Source: Candidatus Bathyarchaeia archaeon (lineage in GTDB: Archaea > Thermoproteota > Bathyarchaeia > Bathyarchaeales > Bathycorpusculaceae). Taken from it: a stretch of DNA of 64,000 nucleotides. The stretch spans positions 32,001 to 96,000 of the forward strand of contig JBMFMB010000001.1 of the NCBI GenBank assembly GCA_049970895.1. Direction: 5' to 3'. Numbering within the stretch: position 1 is the stretch's first letter; the number at the start of each line of letters is the position of its first letter. Below, piece after piece: positions 6,038-58,547 of this stretch. A model generated the notes under the pieces. That model worked only from the letters and a program-made list of their open reading frames with translations. It was not told where the DNA came from and searched no databases. The translations under genes were made by a program, and so were the position numbers.

Positions 6038-7061
6038 AAAACGGCACCTCTTCTATGTAGACTAGTTTCCAAAGCTCGCCGAAATCAAGGTAGGGCGCAG
6101 CCTTCGCCTTCTCCACACAGACATCCAAAGCCTTTTCTATTTCGGCGTTTAAGGCTTCAAACTCTTCCTTTGTTATCATTCCAAGCCTTATGAGGTTGTT
6201 GGCAAACCTTTCTATCGGATCCTTTTTCATCCACTCTTGAACCTCCTCTTTTGGACGGTATTCCGCCTTATCGTAGACGCCATGACCCTTCTTTCGGTAT
6301 GTTCTGCATTCTATAAAGGCTGGACCATTACCGCTTCGAATATGGTTTATGGCGGCTTTTCCACTTGTGTAGACGGCTACAACGTCATTTCCATCAGCCA
6401 AATAGGATTTTATTCCATACGCAGAAGCGCGTGCAGCTATGCTTTCCCCAGCAAAAGACTCCTTATGTGGAACTGAAAAGGCGTAAAAGTTGTTTTCACA
6501 AACGAACAAGACTGGAAGTTTCCAAATAGCCGCCAAGTTTAGGGCTTCGTGGAATGCGCCGGTGTTCACGGCGCCGTCGCCGAAGAAGACAGCCACAATT
6601 CTGCTGCTCCTCCGATATTGCAGTGCCAGTCCCACGCCTACAGCTATAGGTATGCCCCCGCCAACAATCGCCGAAGCAAGCAATATGTTATGCTCAACAC
6701 TCATGGAAGAGTGCATGGAACCACCCAAACCCTTGCAAGTGCCAGTTTTTCTGCCAAACAACTCAGCCATCAAAGCCTCTAATGGAACGCCGCGGGCTAT
6801 GGCGTGACCATGCCCCCTATAAGTGGAGATTATGAAGTCTTCCCTGTCCAAAGCCTTAACGATGCCGGCGGCAACAGCCTCCTGCCCAAGATATAGGTGG
6901 CATGGACCAATAAGCTGCCCCTCAAAAAACAGTTTTTCAACCCGCTCTTCGAAATTTCGCATTTCACACATTTTCCTTAAAAGCCAAAGGAAATCTTCGT
7001 ATGTCAAGCCCAGCGACTGGTATTTTTCTGCTGGAATTTCGCTGATGGATTCAACGCTCAT
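6030..7061 (-). CDS. 2-oxoacid/acetoin dehydrogenase E1 alpha subunit (TPP-dependent)
   Basis: HLYLGQEA, YRGHGH, GLGGSMH, TPP motif GDGA...ENN, TYR..GH. Confidence 0.94.
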   Translation of the reverse strand: MSVESISEIPAEKYQSLGLTYEDFLWLLRKMCEMRNFEERVEKLFFEGQLIGPCHLYLGQEAVAAGIVKALDREDFIISTYRGHGHAIARGVPLEALMAELFGRKTGTCKGLGGSMHSSMSVEHNILLASAIVGGGIPIAVGVGLALQYRRSSRIVAVFFGDGAVNTGAFHEALNLAAIWKLPVLFVCENNFYAFSVPHKESFAGESIAARASAYGIKSYLADGNDVVAVYTSGKAAINHIRSGNGPAFIECRTYRKKGHGVYDKAEYRPKEEVQEWMKKDPIERFANNLIRLGMITKEEFEALNAEIEKALDVCVEKAKAAPYLDFGELWKLVYIEEVPFYG

Positions 7062-7157
7062 GACGGCGTCACCCTTTCCAGAGTTTAGAAGGGTTTAGCA
7101 TTTATAAAGGTTGGACACCTTAAAATCAGCATTCAAGGATGAAATGGTGAAGAGCGC

Positions 7158-8309
7158 ATGTTTGAAAGGGAGCTTCTCATGATTCCGGGTCCAACGAATG
7201 TGGCTCCCTCGGTTTTGCGTGCCATGTGCAAGCCTCCCATGTCGCATACAAGCCAAGAATTCGCCGGCATATTCAAGGAAGCCCTAAACAGCTTGAAACG
7301 CGTTTTCATTACTGAAAGTGATGTTTTTGTGGTTGCTGGTTCTGGAACTTTAGCCCTAGAGATGGCGGTAGCCAACATTGTAGAACCTGGCGACAAAGTG
7401 CTGAATGCTGTTTCCGGGTTTTTTGGGCAGTATTTTGTTGAAATGTGTAAGGTTTACGGTGCGGTTCCCCGCGTCTTGGAAGCGCCGTATGGCAAGGCTG
7501 TAAAGCCAGAACAAGTCAAGGAGGCGTTGGAGGATGGTAGTTTTAAGGCTGTCACTGTTACTCATGTAGAAACTTCAACAGGGGTTGCGAACCCGATTAG
7601 GGAGATAGGCAAAATAGTGCGGAAACATAGCGAAGCCTTCTACATAGTTGACACTGTTTGCTCGCTTGGCGGAATGGAAGTCCGTGTAGACGACTGGGGC
7701 ATAGACGTTTGTGTTTCTGGCTCGCAGAAGTGTATAGGTGTTCCGCCAGGCTTGGCTTTGGTTGCCATCAGCCAAAAAGCCTTGGAATATTTGGAAAGGC
7801 GGAAAACATCTGTTGGCTCGTGGTATGGCAGCTTCAAGAACTGGCTTCCAGTTATGCGGGACCCAACAAAGTATTTTGCAACTCCGCCGGTGAACATGAT
7901 TTACGCTTTACACGAAGCCTTGAAACTTGTGATTGATGAGGGATTAGAAAATCGTTTTAGGAGACATCATGTTTTGGCTAAGGCTTTTAGAGCCGCTATG
8001 AACGCATTAAACCTTAAAATCGTGGCGGAAAAGGGGTACGAGGCGGACACTGTCACAGCCATCTACTATCCGGAAGGCATAGACGACAACAAGTTTAGAA
8101 GCGAAATTAAGAATCGTGGGATAGTTGTTGCCCCAACCCTTGGACCTTTAAAGGGGAAGGGCTTCCGGGTTGGACACATGGGAAACGTGAACCAAAATGA
8201 CATAGCAGCCACGATATCAGCAATAGAAACAACGCTGAAACGCCTCGGATACAATACTAGTCTCGGAAGCGGAACGAAAGCCGCAGAAGAGAAAATCCTT
8301 TCAGTCTAA
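7158..8309 (+). CDS. Class V PLP aminotransferase (alanine-glyoxylate / serine-pyruvate family)
   Basis: LMIPGPT, GSGT, HVETSTG, DTVCSLGG, SGSQKC (PLP lysine), FRVGHMG. Confidence 0.92.
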   Translation: MFERELLMIPGPTNVAPSVLRAMCKPPMSHTSQEFAGIFKEALNSLKRVFITESDVFVVAGSGTLALEMAVANIVEPGDKVLNAVSGFFGQYFVEMCKVYGAVPRVLEAPYGKAVKPEQVKEALEDGSFKAVTVTHVETSTGVANPIREIGKIVRKHSEAFYIVDTVCSLGGMEVRVDDWGIDVCVSGSQKCIGVPPGLALVAISQKALEYLERRKTSVGSWYGSFKNWLPVMRDPTKYFATPPVNMIYALHEALKLVIDEGLENRFRRHHVLAKAFRAAMNALNLKIVAEKGYEADTVTAIYYPEGIDDNKFRSEIKNRGIVVAPTLGPLKGKGFRVGHMGNVNQNDIAATISAIETTLKRLGYNTSLGSGTKAAEEKILSV

Positions 8310-54734: not shown

Positions 54735-55214
54735 GTGGACGTTACAAATATCGTAGGGGTTAAGCTAGACGTTAAGGATGGGGCTGGAACTGTCAATTTT
54801 GATGTCAAGGCTAGGCTTGAAGAGAAGGAAAGGAGAAGCCAAATGGTTGTTGTTGGCTTTAACCTCCAATTAGCAACAAAGCCCGGCATTGTTAAGTTTG
54901 AGGTTGAGGGCACCGCAACACTCACTGGGAAGGATGCGGAGATAAACAAGATGCTGGAGGTTGATCCAGAAACAAAGGTGCCCCACGTTTTCCAGAAAGT
55001 TTATCAACACACTTTTACAGCCATGTACCTACTCTCAACAATTTTGAACACCCCTCCGCCACCGATAGACCTCCTCCTCTTCAGAAGGGAAGAGGTGCCA
55101 ACTGAAGGCGTCGCTATAGAGCCAGAAACAGCAGCCGAAACGGTTAAGGAGGAAACCGCTGGGAAGTGGAGAAAGAGGGCTAGGCGAAGGAATATTTTTA
55201 TTCTTGCCTTGTAG
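54735..55214 (+). CDS. Hypothetical protein, SecB-like fold
   Basis: Four beta strands then a helix ending LNTPPPP, and an acidic tail; both ends uncertain. Confidence 0.55.
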   Translation: MDVTNIVGVKLDVKDGAGTVNFDVKARLEEKERRSQMVVVGFNLQLATKPGIVKFEVEGTATLTGKDAEINKMLEVDPETKVPHVFQKVYQHTFTAMYLLSTILNTPPPPIDLLLFRREEVPTEGVAIEPETAAETVKEETAGKWRKRARRRNIFILAL

Positions 55215-55221
55215 TTATGCT

Positions 55222-55292
55222 GTTTGGTTGGCGGGTGAGTGGGGCCTCCCACCCGTTCCGCCAAATAAACCCCGGTGTCGGGAGGTGAAAAA
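55222..55292 (+). promoter_or_regulatory. Structured 5' leader with anti-SD; candidate cis-regulatory RNA
   Basis: Stem GTTT..TTGGCGG/CCGCCAA..AAAC with inner GTGGG/CCCAC; CCTCCC (55245-55250) complementary to GGGAGG (55280-55285); TATA-like TTTTTATT at about 55195. Confidence 0.5.
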
Positions 55293-55859
55293 TTGAAATT
55301 TGATAGTAAAGATTTAGCCTTAACAGCGGTTTTTGCAAGTTTGTATGCGGTGGTTAACATTGTCCAGACAATGATGGGAGGTCCGATAACTTATGGACCT
55401 GTACAACTGCGTCTTGCTGATTGCTTAATCGCTTTGTCGGCGTTGTTTGGTTTACCGGTGAGTTTTGGTGTTGCAATAGGGTGTTTTAGCAACATCTATT
55501 ACATGCTCGACCCTGCAGACATTGTTATAGGACCAGTTGTGAATTTAGCAGCGGCTTTGTTGGTCTTTATGTTAAGGAAACGTAAACTTTTCGCGTGCGT
55601 TTCTGGCTCGCTGGTTGTTGGCATTCCAATAGGCTTGTATCTATACTACCTTTATGTGCAAGGTAATCCGGTTATTCAGCAACAAATGCCTGATTTTGGT
55701 GTGCCCTTGCCTTTATGGGTTGCATTTATTTTGAGCTTAACAATCAGCAGTTTAGTGGCCATTGCGGTTATTGGATATGCCTTGCTGAAAGCGCTATCGA
55801 AACGAGGCGTTGTTGACTCTTTAAGGGCGCGTGGGCTAAAAATCCTTGAGGAGAAGTAA
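55293..55859 (+). CDS. QueT-family transporter (ECF S-component-like)
   Basis: A.FASLYAV, ITYGPVQLRLADCL, GVAIGC..N, D...G; TTG 55293 follows GGAGGTGA. Confidence 0.82.
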   Translation: MKFDSKDLALTAVFASLYAVVNIVQTMMGGPITYGPVQLRLADCLIALSALFGLPVSFGVAIGCFSNIYYMLDPADIVIGPVVNLAAALLVFMLRKRKLFACVSGSLVVGIPIGLYLYYLYVQGNPVIQQQMPDFGVPLPLWVAFILSLTISSLVAIAVIGYALLKALSKRGVVDSLRARGLKILEEK

Positions 55860-55868
55860 GGCTGCTGA

Positions 55869-58547
55869 TTACATGAAACGTTCAAGTTTTGTTAACCCTA
55901 TTATCTCGTCAAAGTCTAAGCCTAAAGCGTCTAAAACCTGATCGAAGGTGGAGTGAAGATAAGCCACATACTTGTCTACGTCTATCTCGTTTTTTGTTGC
56001 CAACTCGACAGGTTTCACGTGGGGTTCGTTTACAACCTTTACAAAACTTATTAGGTCGCCAGCTTTTAGTTCCATCCCGCTTTCTTTTAGGATTCTCGCG
56101 GCTTTCACGTGTTGCGGTGTTGTTTTTGTGTAGCGTTCTGGCTCTTCGCCTAATACTACATTGAAAGCTAGTTCGTTTAGGCTTTCCCATTCGCGTCTTT
56201 TTAGCCTTACATAACAGTCGCGTATTGTTTGGATGATGTCCTTTTTAGCTGCTTCAAAGTCTGCTGGCGACTTAACCATGGCTAGTCGTTCCTTCATCTT
56301 ATCGAAAGCCTTCTTAATGAAAAGGGGGATGTGGCGTTTCTTGCCAGTCAAGCCCTTAACGTCGACGCTTCCATCTTCTAAGACGCCTAGATAGTTCTTT
56401 TTGCGGGAGCTGAAGACCGCATAGCGGTAAACCTTGTCCACGTCTAAGCCCATTTTAAGTTCGCGTTCAGTCCACTCCTCAAGCTCGCATATCTGCTCCT
56501 TTGACGGGTTTTTTAGGAAGACGCTGTCCGTGTCGCCGTAAAGCACTTGGATGCCCAGTTCCTCAGCCCTCTTAATTATCTGGGTTATGGCGTGCCTTCC
56601 TATGGCTGCTGTTGCCTCGGCAACTGGTGGGCAGTAGAGGTCGAAGGTTTCTGCTCCAAAGACGCCGTAGCTGGCGTTTAAAATGACCTTTAACGCGCCT
56701 TGGATGATATTGTACCAGCTTCTAACTTCTGGCGGCAAAGTCTTGTCCTTCGATTTTGGCTTGTACCACTGAACTCGCAAGTCCCTCAACGAGCCTATTA
56801 GGAGGCTTTCTAGGGCGCGTTTTTTGCGGCAAACCCAGTGGGGGGTGTCTGGCACAAAGTTTGTTTTGCATTCTGGATGTCCACATAAGATGGATTGGTA
56901 GCCCAAATTCCAAACTTTTATTATGGATGGGTATAGGCTTGGAAAGTCCATGACGGCGACGTTAAAGTGGACGCCCGGCACTGGTTCTACGACTATGGCG
57001 CCCTTGTACTTTTTGCCCTTAATTATGGCTTTTGTGGCCGTTTTGCCTTTTAGGGCTAGTATGTCCTCAGCGTTTGGAATAAGCATATTTTTTCTGCGGT
57101 GTTCCCGGTGCATAAAGTTTCTTATCCAGCGGGATACACCTTGTCGGCTCACATCCTCCATCGGCATGCTGCTTATCCTAGCCAAAACAAGAATTAACTT
57201 TAGGACCAGCTCGTCTTCGAAGCTTGTTAGTTTGTAGGTTATTTCAGCGTCTCTAAAACAGTATTTTGCAAGTTCCGTGTACGTTAATTCGCCTATGCTC
57301 TTCTCCAGTGTTATTTTGTCCAAGCCTACAAGTGCCATGCCAACATCGCCTAAAGTAACGTCTCTGTAGCGGTTGTTGAAGGCATATATTTGTATGGAGC
57401 GGTTGAAGAAGAACTTGTAGAGGTCGATGTGCACCCCATATTTTAGGAGGCAGACGCGCTTCCCAATTTCTATCGGGATTTCATCCCGCTTAAAACCGTG
57501 GTTTTCCGCCCTATGCGCCAAATACCGCAAGTCAAAATCGTCGCCGTTGAAGGTTACCACGAAGGGGTAGTTCCACAAAACCTCGAAGACAGCTCTTATC
57601 AGCTTCTCTTCAGAATCAAAATATTCTATTTGCACATCTGCTGGTAAACGTTCCGAGCCTTCGCGAACCCCTTCCCTTTTTAGGAGGAGAACCCTTTTCT
57701 GCCCATCCGAACTGTATAGTGAGACGCAGACTATTGGGTAGGCTGCTTCTCTTGGGTCTGGCATTCGAGTCGGTATGGGCGAATAAACCTCAATGTCCAT
57801 GGCGACGTAACGGAACTTTGGGGCTGGATATTCTAGAAGCCTAGCCCACTGCTCAATATACTGAAGCTCTTCAGCGTCAGCCTCCTTAAAGGTTGCAACA
57901 ATTTGTTGAACCGTTCTTTCCGCTTCTTCTAGGCTTTTTGGTACAAGATTACCATCTTTGACTTCGTAAACCATGCCTGGCAAAAGTCCACGGTCATAAA
58001 TGTAGGACTGGTAATACTTTATCTTAGACTCCCAAACCTTTATGGATTCGGCGGAAACCGGGACATCCGCAACTTTTGGAAAGTCTTCTGGGATAATGTC
58101 CCTTATGCAGCCTCTCGGTCGCCCTCCAATGGCTAACGGGTCTTTGGCAACGATTTTTGTCACTTTTACCGGCTTGTCCAAGAGGGGGTCAAACTTTTCC
58201 ACAATTTCGAAGTGGTCAAAGCCCGGATGCTTCATTAAACGGTCAATTTTCTCAAGCTCGAAAGGCGAAAGATTCGTGTAGCAATATGGCCTATGCCCAG
58301 TGTTATCATACCAGAAGTAAATGCACCCAGAAACAGGCTCGTAAAGCTTGATTAGGGCTTTTCCAGCCTTTCCATCATAAGTGGCTGAAACAAAATATGA
58401 TGGTGGAAGATTTTCTGGAGCCGCTGGTGGGAAGCCCCGCTCTTTTCGTTCTTTTTCTAGGGATTTTGTGAAGGGTAGGGCTTCCGCTTCGGCTTCTTGG
58501 GGTTTTGCCACAGGCATTGAGAACTCGTCTAGGCGCCTTTGAGCCAT
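55869..58547 (-). CDS. polB1: Family B DNA polymerase, PolB1 type
   Basis: ExoI DIEV, ExoII FNGDDFD, ExoIII YCFRDA, DFPSLYPSII, KVILNASYG, YGDTDS, KKNY; N-terminus resembling crenarchaeal PolB1. Confidence 0.93.
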   Translation of the reverse strand: MAQRRLDEFSMPVAKPQEAEAEALPFTKSLEKERKERGFPPAAPENLPPSYFVSATYDGKAGKALIKLYEPVSGCIYFWYDNTGHRPYCYTNLSPFELEKIDRLMKHPGFDHFEIVEKFDPLLDKPVKVTKIVAKDPLAIGGRPRGCIRDIIPEDFPKVADVPVSAESIKVWESKIKYYQSYIYDRGLLPGMVYEVKDGNLVPKSLEEAERTVQQIVATFKEADAEELQYIEQWARLLEYPAPKFRYVAMDIEVYSPIPTRMPDPREAAYPIVCVSLYSSDGQKRVLLLKREGVREGSERLPADVQIEYFDSEEKLIRAVFEVLWNYPFVVTFNGDDFDLRYLAHRAENHGFKRDEIPIEIGKRVCLLKYGVHIDLYKFFFNRSIQIYAFNNRYRDVTLGDVGMALVGLDKITLEKSIGELTYTELAKYCFRDAEITYKLTSFEDELVLKLILVLARISSMPMEDVSRQGVSRWIRNFMHREHRRKNMLIPNAEDILALKGKTATKAIIKGKKYKGAIVVEPVPGVHFNVAVMDFPSLYPSIIKVWNLGYQSILCGHPECKTNFVPDTPHWVCRKKRALESLLIGSLRDLRVQWYKPKSKDKTLPPEVRSWYNIIQGALKVILNASYGVFGAETFDLYCPPVAEATAAIGRHAITQIIKRAEELGIQVLYGDTDSVFLKNPSKEQICELEEWTERELKMGLDVDKVYRYAVFSSRKKNYLGVLEDGSVDVKGLTGKKRHIPLFIKKAFDKMKERLAMVKSPADFEAAKKDIIQTIRDCYVRLKRREWESLNELAFNVVLGEEPERYTKTTPQHVKAARILKESGMELKAGDLISFVKVVNEPHVKPVELATKNEIDVDKYVAYLHSTFDQVLDALGLDFDEIIGLTKLERFM

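Follow-up and report, generated by a model that had tools for sequence, protein, structure and literature searches.

What does the short G+C-rich leader in front of the queT gene of a Candidatus Bathyarchaeia archaeon do, and does it sense a metabolite? The gene (55293-55859, TTG start, 188 amino acids) lies in a 64,000-nucleotide stretch of contig JBMFMB010000001.1 (positions 32,001 to 96,000), referred to here as the window; coordinates are positions in this window, and the leader element lies on its + strand. The original prediction, made from the letters of the DNA, had read the leader as a translational switch in which an anti-Shine-Dalgarno (anti-SD) sequence competes for the Shine-Dalgarno (SD) sequence of a QueT-family transporter gene, and which may sense a 7-deazaguanine. 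The family assignment was correct, as the product matched PF06177 (QueT) with 76.4 bits (E 3.7e-21, profile positions 1-141 of 141), above the gathering score of 33.7 bits. Comparison of related leaders makes it probable that the element acts in cis as a riboswitch, of a class that Rfam does not contain; it probably senses preQ0 and turns queT translation OFF when the base is plentiful.

The element spans 55228-55286 and is composed of two helices, P1 and P2, a loop with the anti-SD, an A-rich/CCCCGG tail, and the SD. The 5' strand of P1, UU-GGCGG (55228-55234, core 55230-55234), pairs with CCGCC-AA (55258-55264). The invariant junction G6-U7 (55235-55236) connects it to P2, in which GAGUGGG (55237-55243) pairs with CCCACCC (55248-55254) around a conserved A.C mismatch (55238/55253); the inner stem of P2 contains GUGGG/CCCAC, and its loop reads GCCU. 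Between P2 and the 3' strand of P1 lies the nearly invariant junction G24-U25-U26 (55255-55257). P1 is followed by the conserved linker and tail AUAAA-CCCCGG (55265-55275), with AAAUAAA at 55263-55269, CCCC at 55270-55273, and CCCCGG at 55270-55275. The SD itself, GGGAGG (55280-55285), is separated by 7 nucleotides from the TTG codon at 55293. Together with the following U (55280-55286) it is the 3' strand of a pseudoknot, complementary to the apical loop and anti-SD GCCUCCC (55244-55250), the last three C of which are shared with P2. The described pieces of the leader, including the complementarity of GCCUCCC to GGGAGGU over the SD, were thus all present where the original prediction had put them. 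The long hairpin drawn there from 55222-55234 and 55258-55270 is real, but its outer stem is supported only for 55228/55230-55234 with 55258-55262/55264. The window copy is a typical long-form member of the set of leaders described below.

Is the leader kept in other genomes? Of the 101 genomes sampled from this family, 93 encode a homologue recovered by a QueT protein search. The 30 best loci, with proteins 46-99% identical, had all kept the leader and the position of the queT start. About 62 nucleotides 5' of this conserved start were nearly identical in these loci, and sequences further upstream diverged. The reservation that the structure might not be conserved in orthologous leaders was thus clearly removed. 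A degenerate motif pattern occurred once in the window and not at all in 100 shuffles; it matched at least 119 stretches in a species-level genome collection and gave 0 matches in viral contigs. Among the 80 matches listed, nearly all were from Bathyarchaeia or Bathyarchaeota metagenome-assembled genomes (MAGs); those listed also included three from Methanomethylicus/Methanomethylicota, some labelled Nitrososphaerota or Thaumarchaeota, and two in bacterial-labelled MAGs. One copy is in the complete genome CP122380.1.

A covariance model, R1, was built on 129 unique copies. In the genome of the window it gave one strong match (77.8 bits) and one weak match (16.9 bits). In the family, 92 of the 101 genomes sampled had a match, mostly in single copy; so did 93 of 151 genomes of the class, from many families, and 30 of 151 genomes of the phylum, other classes included. 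Outside the class, the genomes with matches numbered 9 of 15 in family f38, 3 of 3 in f50, and 2 of 2 in f54; R1 matched none of the 19 f32 and 13 f41 genomes searched. The element recurs in hundreds of genomes, and it does so with covariation. The weak match in the genome of the window (G000:C6:20404-20460(-), E 0.07) falls inside, and on the same strand as, an open reading frame (ORF) of the tRNA-guanine transglycosylase (TGT) family (C6:19697-20665); it probably arose by chance, though the coincidence of pathway is odd. Two motif copies, L084 and L085, lie on contigs whose MAGs carry the labels Patescibacteria and Krumholzibacteriaceae. In both, queT is divergent from a prolyl-oligopeptidase gene, and the neighbouring genes give no sign of the domain of origin; mis-binning is the likely source of the bacterial labels.

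Does the loop pair with the SD? Judged from the collected sequences, the predicted loop:SD pseudoknot is the helix with the richest comparative evidence. In 207 of 209 unique copies, the hairpin can form an uninterrupted run of at least five pairs with the ribosome-binding region, and the helices comprise 75 sequence types. Compensated forms included CUUCC:GGAAG, CCACC:GGUGG, CCCUCU:AGAGGG, UCCGAC:GUCGGA, GCCCCCU:AGGGGGC, and GUCUCCC:GGGAGGC. Long-form copies have one more loop base, which with the base before GGAGG made C:G in 42, U:A in 12, and other combinations in 2 of 56 copies. The cognate hairpin/tail duplex had an energy of -16.65 kcal/mol versus -15.03 ± 0.12 kcal/mol after permutation, and none of 1000 permutations reached it. 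P1 plus pseudoknot were 98.6% paired in alignment A1 versus 48-68% when the partners were slid. Because short-form and long-form copies are out of register by one column at the anti-SD and the SD of this MAFFT alignment, the pseudoknot was judged by an anchored parse and a per-sequence helix search. The anti-SD:SD pairing on which the original prediction relied is thus both conserved and covarying, with compensatory variants. The helix CCACC:GGUGG is the loop:tail pairing of L241 and L242 (family f50).

At its 3' end, the anti-SD doubles as the 3' strand of the P2 top. Of 209 copies, 175 have 2-3 anti-SD nucleotides that also belong to the P2 stem, and 191 have two or more anti-SD bases paired in the minimum free energy (MFE) fold of the hairpin itself. 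The mutually exclusive folds that had been proposed take this form: the pseudoknot and the P2 top compete for the same 2-3 cytosines, and two exclusive states are predicted from the sequences, one with the SD free and one with the SD sequestered. Energies were estimated with nearest-neighbour parameters for 37 °C and are rough. The full hairpin of the window copy reached -19.6 kcal/mol, and -8.8 kcal/mol after the top three P2 pairs were opened. Opening thus costs ~10.8 kcal/mol, and the 7-bp SD helix returns ~12.3 kcal/mol before any pseudoknot penalty. From these values, the hairpin with a free SD should prevail unless the pseudoknot is otherwise stabilised.

Compensatory changes are seen in the sequences not only for the pseudoknot but also for P1 and P2. 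The outermost core pair of P1 (n = 129) was G:C in 103 copies, U:A in 8, G:U in 6, A:U in 4, C:G in 2, and unpaired in 6. Pair 5:27 of P1 (n = 89) was G:C in 83, C:G in 5, and G:U in 1. The extension pair x0:N32 was canonical in 116 of 201 copies (U:A 72, A:U 23, U:G 12, C:G 9). In P2, pair 11:20 (columns 16:36 of alignment A3) was U:A in 64, G:C in 10, and C:G in 3 copies; pair 8:23 (columns 13:39) was G:C in 75, G:U in 5, and A:U and U:A in 1 each. Partners in P2 were deleted together in L223, L208, and L214. In A3, which like A2 was aligned to the P1/P2 model, the two helices were 89.3% paired versus 42-72% in slid controls. Six of their pairs were changed on both sides, and the covariation score was 0.188 versus 0.077 in shuffles, of which 0 of 500 reached the observed value. 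RNAalifold on A3 recovered P1, the G6.U26 pair, and part of P2. G6 and U7 were G and U in 89 of 89 A3 rows, and RNAalifold paired G6 with U26 as G.U in all 89; G6-U7 was also present in 201 of 201 copies parsed by a regular expression, which forces both letters. In the same 201 copies, the junction 24-26 had G in 200 at its first position, U in 193, A in 4, and C in 4 at its second, and U in 201 at its third, where the expression forces U. The hairpin is thus conserved and covarying, as the originally drawn fold needs, with its compensatory pairs in P1 and P2 of A3.

A further stem offered in the original prediction, CGGGUG/CACCCG, did not hold up. The two strands are complementary, but no compensatory changes were found (0), and 500 of 500 shuffles reached its score. 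It is broken by the changes G5-to-C, C21-to-A, A20-to-C, and C23-to-A, which are compensated in P1/P2 instead.

On which strand, and from where, is the element transcribed? An AT-rich peak was seen at -37..-29 from the second P1 base (208 copies), and a heptamer with six or more of the seven TATA-like letters was present in 108 copies, in 89 of which it started at -37..-30. With the usual archaeal spacing from TATA box to start, which places the start a few nucleotides before P1, transcripts would begin just there and the element would make up the whole 5' untranslated region. In the window, the AT-rich, TATA-like box ATTTTTATT occupies 55194-55202 (+) inside the 3' end of an upstream ORF of 159 amino acids (54735-55214 (+), stop codon 55212-55214) that had no Pfam match; the queT promoter box thus falls within the final codons of this ORF. 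The strand of the element was fixed as + because each of the three helices has G.U pairs and the element keeps a constant orientation to the gene.

The upstream stop codon lies 14 nucleotides 5' of P1, so that the hairpin could be thought to terminate the upstream gene, or the conserved feature could belong to the opposite strand. The minus strand indeed folds well (z -3.64), and a terminator-like hairpin with a T-run, formed by CCCCGG..GGG and the A-rich segment, was matched at 55283-55270 (-). Both explanations are already contradicted, and we give them next to no credence. The upstream sequence is not conserved in the 30 loci, whereas the element stands at a fixed distance to the downstream start and the TATA-like box. 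No T-run follows the hairpin on the + strand, and on the opposite strand the G.U pairs of P1, P2, and the pseudoknot would become A.C mismatches. No minus-strand gene ends near 55283-55270; the DNA polymerase gene ends at 55869.

Near-cognate codons were observed at the conserved queT start, 7-8 nucleotides after the SD, in several orthologues: ACG in L013, L070, L071, L081, L118, and L146, CTG in L057, L096, and L125, and ATA in L102 and L105. The first transmembrane helix begins right after these positions, which suggests either near-cognate initiation or sequencing differences.

Which genes stand behind the element? Unique copies numbered 210, and 180 of these were found motif-first and used for the regulon counts. 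A QueT-like ORF followed the motif directly in 171 of 180. A QueE-like radical-SAM gene followed in three, its top NCBIfam matches being all QueE and below the cut-offs, and QueC in one (TIGR00364, 195 bits, above the cut-off). An unannotated membrane protein and then QueC followed in two. The remaining motif-first copies comprised two cut by contig ends and one spurious match of the regular expression. Operons had the orders motif-queE-queC, motif-queE-glutamine amidotransferase/QueC fusion-DUF2848, and motif-queC-queT. As read from gene content, this is the regulon that one would expect if preQ0 or a closely related compound were sensed.

The membrane protein directly between motif and queC (L058:5724-6557(-) and L107:5816-6544(+)) was found on two unrelated contigs. 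It has ~245-280 amino acids and no Pfam or NCBIfam match, and it is a candidate for an undescribed 7-deazapurine transporter, as its gene context suggests. Behind a motif-controlled queE, the glutamine amidotransferase/QueC fusion (L076:5243-6694(+)) is followed by a DUF2848 protein (6744-7415(+)); fusions of this kind have been put forward as an alternative archaeosine synthase of some Crenarchaeota.

The genome of the window, 97% complete, encodes a TGT-family ORF of 549 amino acids (273 bits) and an EcfT-like protein. Profile searches of this genome gave 28.7 bits at best for QueC and 21.8 bits for a QueE-like protein, and found no PTPS/QueD and no QueF. Because queC, queD, queE, and queF were not found and TGT is present, QueT is probably the only supply route; because QueF was not found, the imported base is probably used as preQ0.

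The tail AAA-(C/U/A)-CCC was kept in nearly all copies, and several partners for it were tried and rejected. The original prediction had suggested a pseudoknot of CCCC with GGGG. The segments are complementary, but no covariation was found with a G-run of the loop or of P2, the loop base being variable, and changes of G12/G13 in L164, L013, and L105 were unmatched in the tail. Pairing of the tail CCC with G4-G6 in competition with P1 was discarded, as five copies with G5-to-C altered C27 and not the tail. In a 3-bp contact CCG(22-24):CGG(43-45), the bases are invariant, and the contact is missing in the group whose tails read CCCCAAAA. A mutual-information signal linking Y40 and N44 in the tail came from a parsing shift and not from covariation.

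How might the element act? Three generic features of riboswitches are present: a covarying 5' leader, genes of a single pathway across lineages, and a switchable expression platform. The architecture of a translational switch with an anti-SD has now gained comparative support, since the SD pairing covaries and competes with the hairpin. We propose that the leader senses preQ0, the precursor that archaea insert into tRNA for archaeosine. The invariant unpaired bases G6, U7, G24, and U26 and the AAA-YCCC tail may form the ligand pocket. The ligand would dock the tail along P1/P2 and so tip the closed hairpin toward the pseudoknot, which would hide the SD and turn queT translation off. The switch would then provide feedback on uptake in a genome dependent on QueT.

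Several observations weigh against this reading. The window copy folded alone on the + strand (MFE -31.5 kcal/mol, z -1.55) was no better than its shuffles, 16 of 200 of which folded as well; the significance of the fold comes from the comparison across genomes and not from the single sequence. In that comparison, A3 and A2 lean toward the P1/P2 model used for aligning, and because the sequences are related, the shuffle tests overstate significance. Two of the four pseudoknot pairs changed on both sides in A1 (columns 25:74 and 26:73) are due to the alignment shift. The transcription start is deduced solely from the position of the TATA box, no RNA run having turned up among the sequencing runs that contain the locus. 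In L241 and L242, the first Met before the QueT-like part comes ~55 codons into the open frame and ~160 nucleotides downstream of the pseudoknot strand, implying either an N-terminal extension with an unusual start or control at a distance. Bacterial QueT imports preQ1 according to the available text of a 2024 review (PMC11625349), and the ligand could therefore be preQ1 or another 7-deazapurine. In the divergent group L215, L216, L218, L219, L222, and L245, the GG of the tail is replaced by A-runs. A pairing partner for the conserved CCC tail was sought by covariation and none was found. Most of the motif is nearly invariant, which could reflect a protein-binding site as well and deprives tail and junction of covariation.

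A protein that decides between hairpin and pseudoknot, either a regulator of the archaeosine pathway or TGT itself, would account for the high conservation of the junction, the P1 core, and a tail with no demonstrable RNA partner. TGT is encoded in the host genome, and the Shigella enzyme is reported to modify an mRNA in vitro (PMC1950534). We regard such a site as rather unlikely. No conserved regulator gene was seen beside the element, and the flanks beyond the TATA box vary between genomes. The element precedes transport genes in genomes in which no synthesis genes were found, and in other genomes it precedes the synthesis genes themselves, which is the pattern of a metabolite riboswitch. 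Moreover, a loop:SD pseudoknot with an A-rich linker resembles the ligand-binding preQ1 classes as described in the available text of PMC11625349.

The invariant bases also bear on the idea that the leader is a ligand-independent translational attenuator or an RNA thermometer setting a fixed or temperature-dependent level of QueT. Helices that sequester an SD can act as thermometers, and DNA of the window is present in hot-spring metagenome runs. However, invariant unpaired bases in junction and tail are needless for a simple thermometer, the genes are pathway-specific and not stress-related, and isolate names point to MAGs from peat, soil, and sediment as the source of some copies. This explanation thus appears very unlikely.

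The preQ0 riboswitch that we favour has good support as a candidate new class of 7-deazaguanine riboswitches, and in the sequence collections it was found essentially only in archaeal records. With somewhat less assurance, we lean toward a broader view. This would be the first archaea-confined riboswitch class and the fourth distinct aptamer for queuosine/archaeosine precursors, reading preQ0 and not preQ1. It would be present in Bathyarchaeia, Methanomethylicia, and other Thermoproteota and govern both uptake (queT and the queC-linked membrane protein) and synthesis (queE and queC), with a second, smaller element doing the same job in a few genera. If this is true, archaea evolved metabolite-sensing RNAs of their own, the thiamine pyrophosphate (TPP) and fluoride classes both being common to bacteria. 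A new fold would join the preQ family, itself a model system for small aptamers. The element would offer a first handle on the regulation of salvage of tRNA-modification precursors in uncultured Bathyarchaeia, many of which may not make the precursor. The element has only ~60 nucleotides, and the SD sequestration predicted for it lends itself to direct tests in vitro; it also flags the unannotated membrane protein as a candidate 7-deazapurine transporter.

Six of 301 family genomes carry the second, smaller element, which stands there before a QueT paralogue (L252-L257; genera g52 and g17). It has a 4-5-bp stem, (G)GUAG/CUAC(C), a loop UUUCCGUA..AAC, and then UUAAAAAA-CCGG just before the start codon, and it lies ~60 nucleotides before the QueT start in L253. 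In genus g52 it replaces the main motif, and genomes G051 and G098 have QueT without an R1 match. We take this element to resemble the class I preQ1 aptamer; a search with RF00522, which has a gathering score of 39 bits, gave no match at its loci.

How does the main element compare with known riboswitches? The whole window gave 0 matches to Rfam 15 at gathering thresholds. With E values up to 10, the segments 54900-55600 and 55218-55300 (83 nucleotides) gave only chance-level matches to microRNAs and small RNAs. The statement of the original prediction that the leader is not a canonical preQ1-I aptamer was thus confirmed, the scan having included preQ1-I, -II, and -III. The full-text literature searched, with most subscription journals lying outside it, gave no account of a queT or preQ riboswitch in archaea. 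The three preQ1 classes described in the available text of PMC11625349 are all reported from bacterial phyla, and archaea go unmentioned there. According to the accessible part of a 2017 survey (PMC5473149), only very few of the known classes are used by archaea, TPP and fluoride being the main ones.

Could the element belong, in strongly diverged form, to preQ1 class I, II, or III? The gene association is the same. In the terms of the available text of PMC11625349, the topology from loop to downstream SD fits the HLout pseudoknot of classes II and III, and the A-rich linker after P1 is as in class I. We nevertheless consider such membership unlikely. No Rfam match was obtained at E values up to 10 even for the 83 nucleotides alone, and the P1 3' strand is preceded by U, not by the AC or UC of class I. 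By eye, the G+C-rich element has no U-rich tract for the U-A-U triples in the pocket floor of classes II and III. Class II is reported only from Bacillota in that text, which leaves archaea unmentioned.

The preQ1 classes were compared through Rfam models and published descriptions, and the element shares separate traits with each. Similar to preQ1-I (RF00522), it is small, has a P1 followed by an A-rich linker, and would control queT and que biosynthesis genes. In contrast to preQ1-I, it gave no RF00522 match, and its P1 encloses a second helix. In preQ1-I, the bases just before the P1 3' strand are AC (type II) or UC (type I), and the C reads the ligand (PMC11625349, available text), whereas CCGCC of the element follows G-(U/A/C)-U in the 201 parsed copies. 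The fluoride and TPP classes, the most common ones in archaea according to the accessible part of PMC5473149, are common to bacteria, whereas the element occurs only in archaeal-labelled records save for the two contigs in bacterial-labelled MAGs. Like preQ1-III (RF02680), the element would dock a loop anti-SD on a downstream SD (PMC11625349 and PMC11602147, available text). It differs in having no RF02680 match, in its much smaller size of ~60 nucleotides, and in an SD helix of 5-8 bp that covaries strongly and directly adjoins the conserved core rather than lying at a distance from the pocket.

With preQ1-II (RF01054) the element shares the place before queT, an SD forming the 3' strand of an HLout-type pseudoknot, and, as predicted here, translational control and a ligand from the 7-deazaguanine family (PMC11625349, available text). 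The whole SD lies in the pseudoknot helix, as in the HLout arrangement, which is a topological likeness only. The element differs from preQ1-II in giving no RF01054 match, in its G+C richness without an evident U-rich tract for U-A-U triples (by eye), and in its archaeal origin, preQ1-II being confined to Bacillota in the same text. It also carries its anti-SD in an apical loop enclosed by P1, where it competes with its own stem. Membership tests for both preQ1-II and preQ1-III were thus negative, and in its mode of action, as predicted from the conserved pairings, the element is closest to these two classes.

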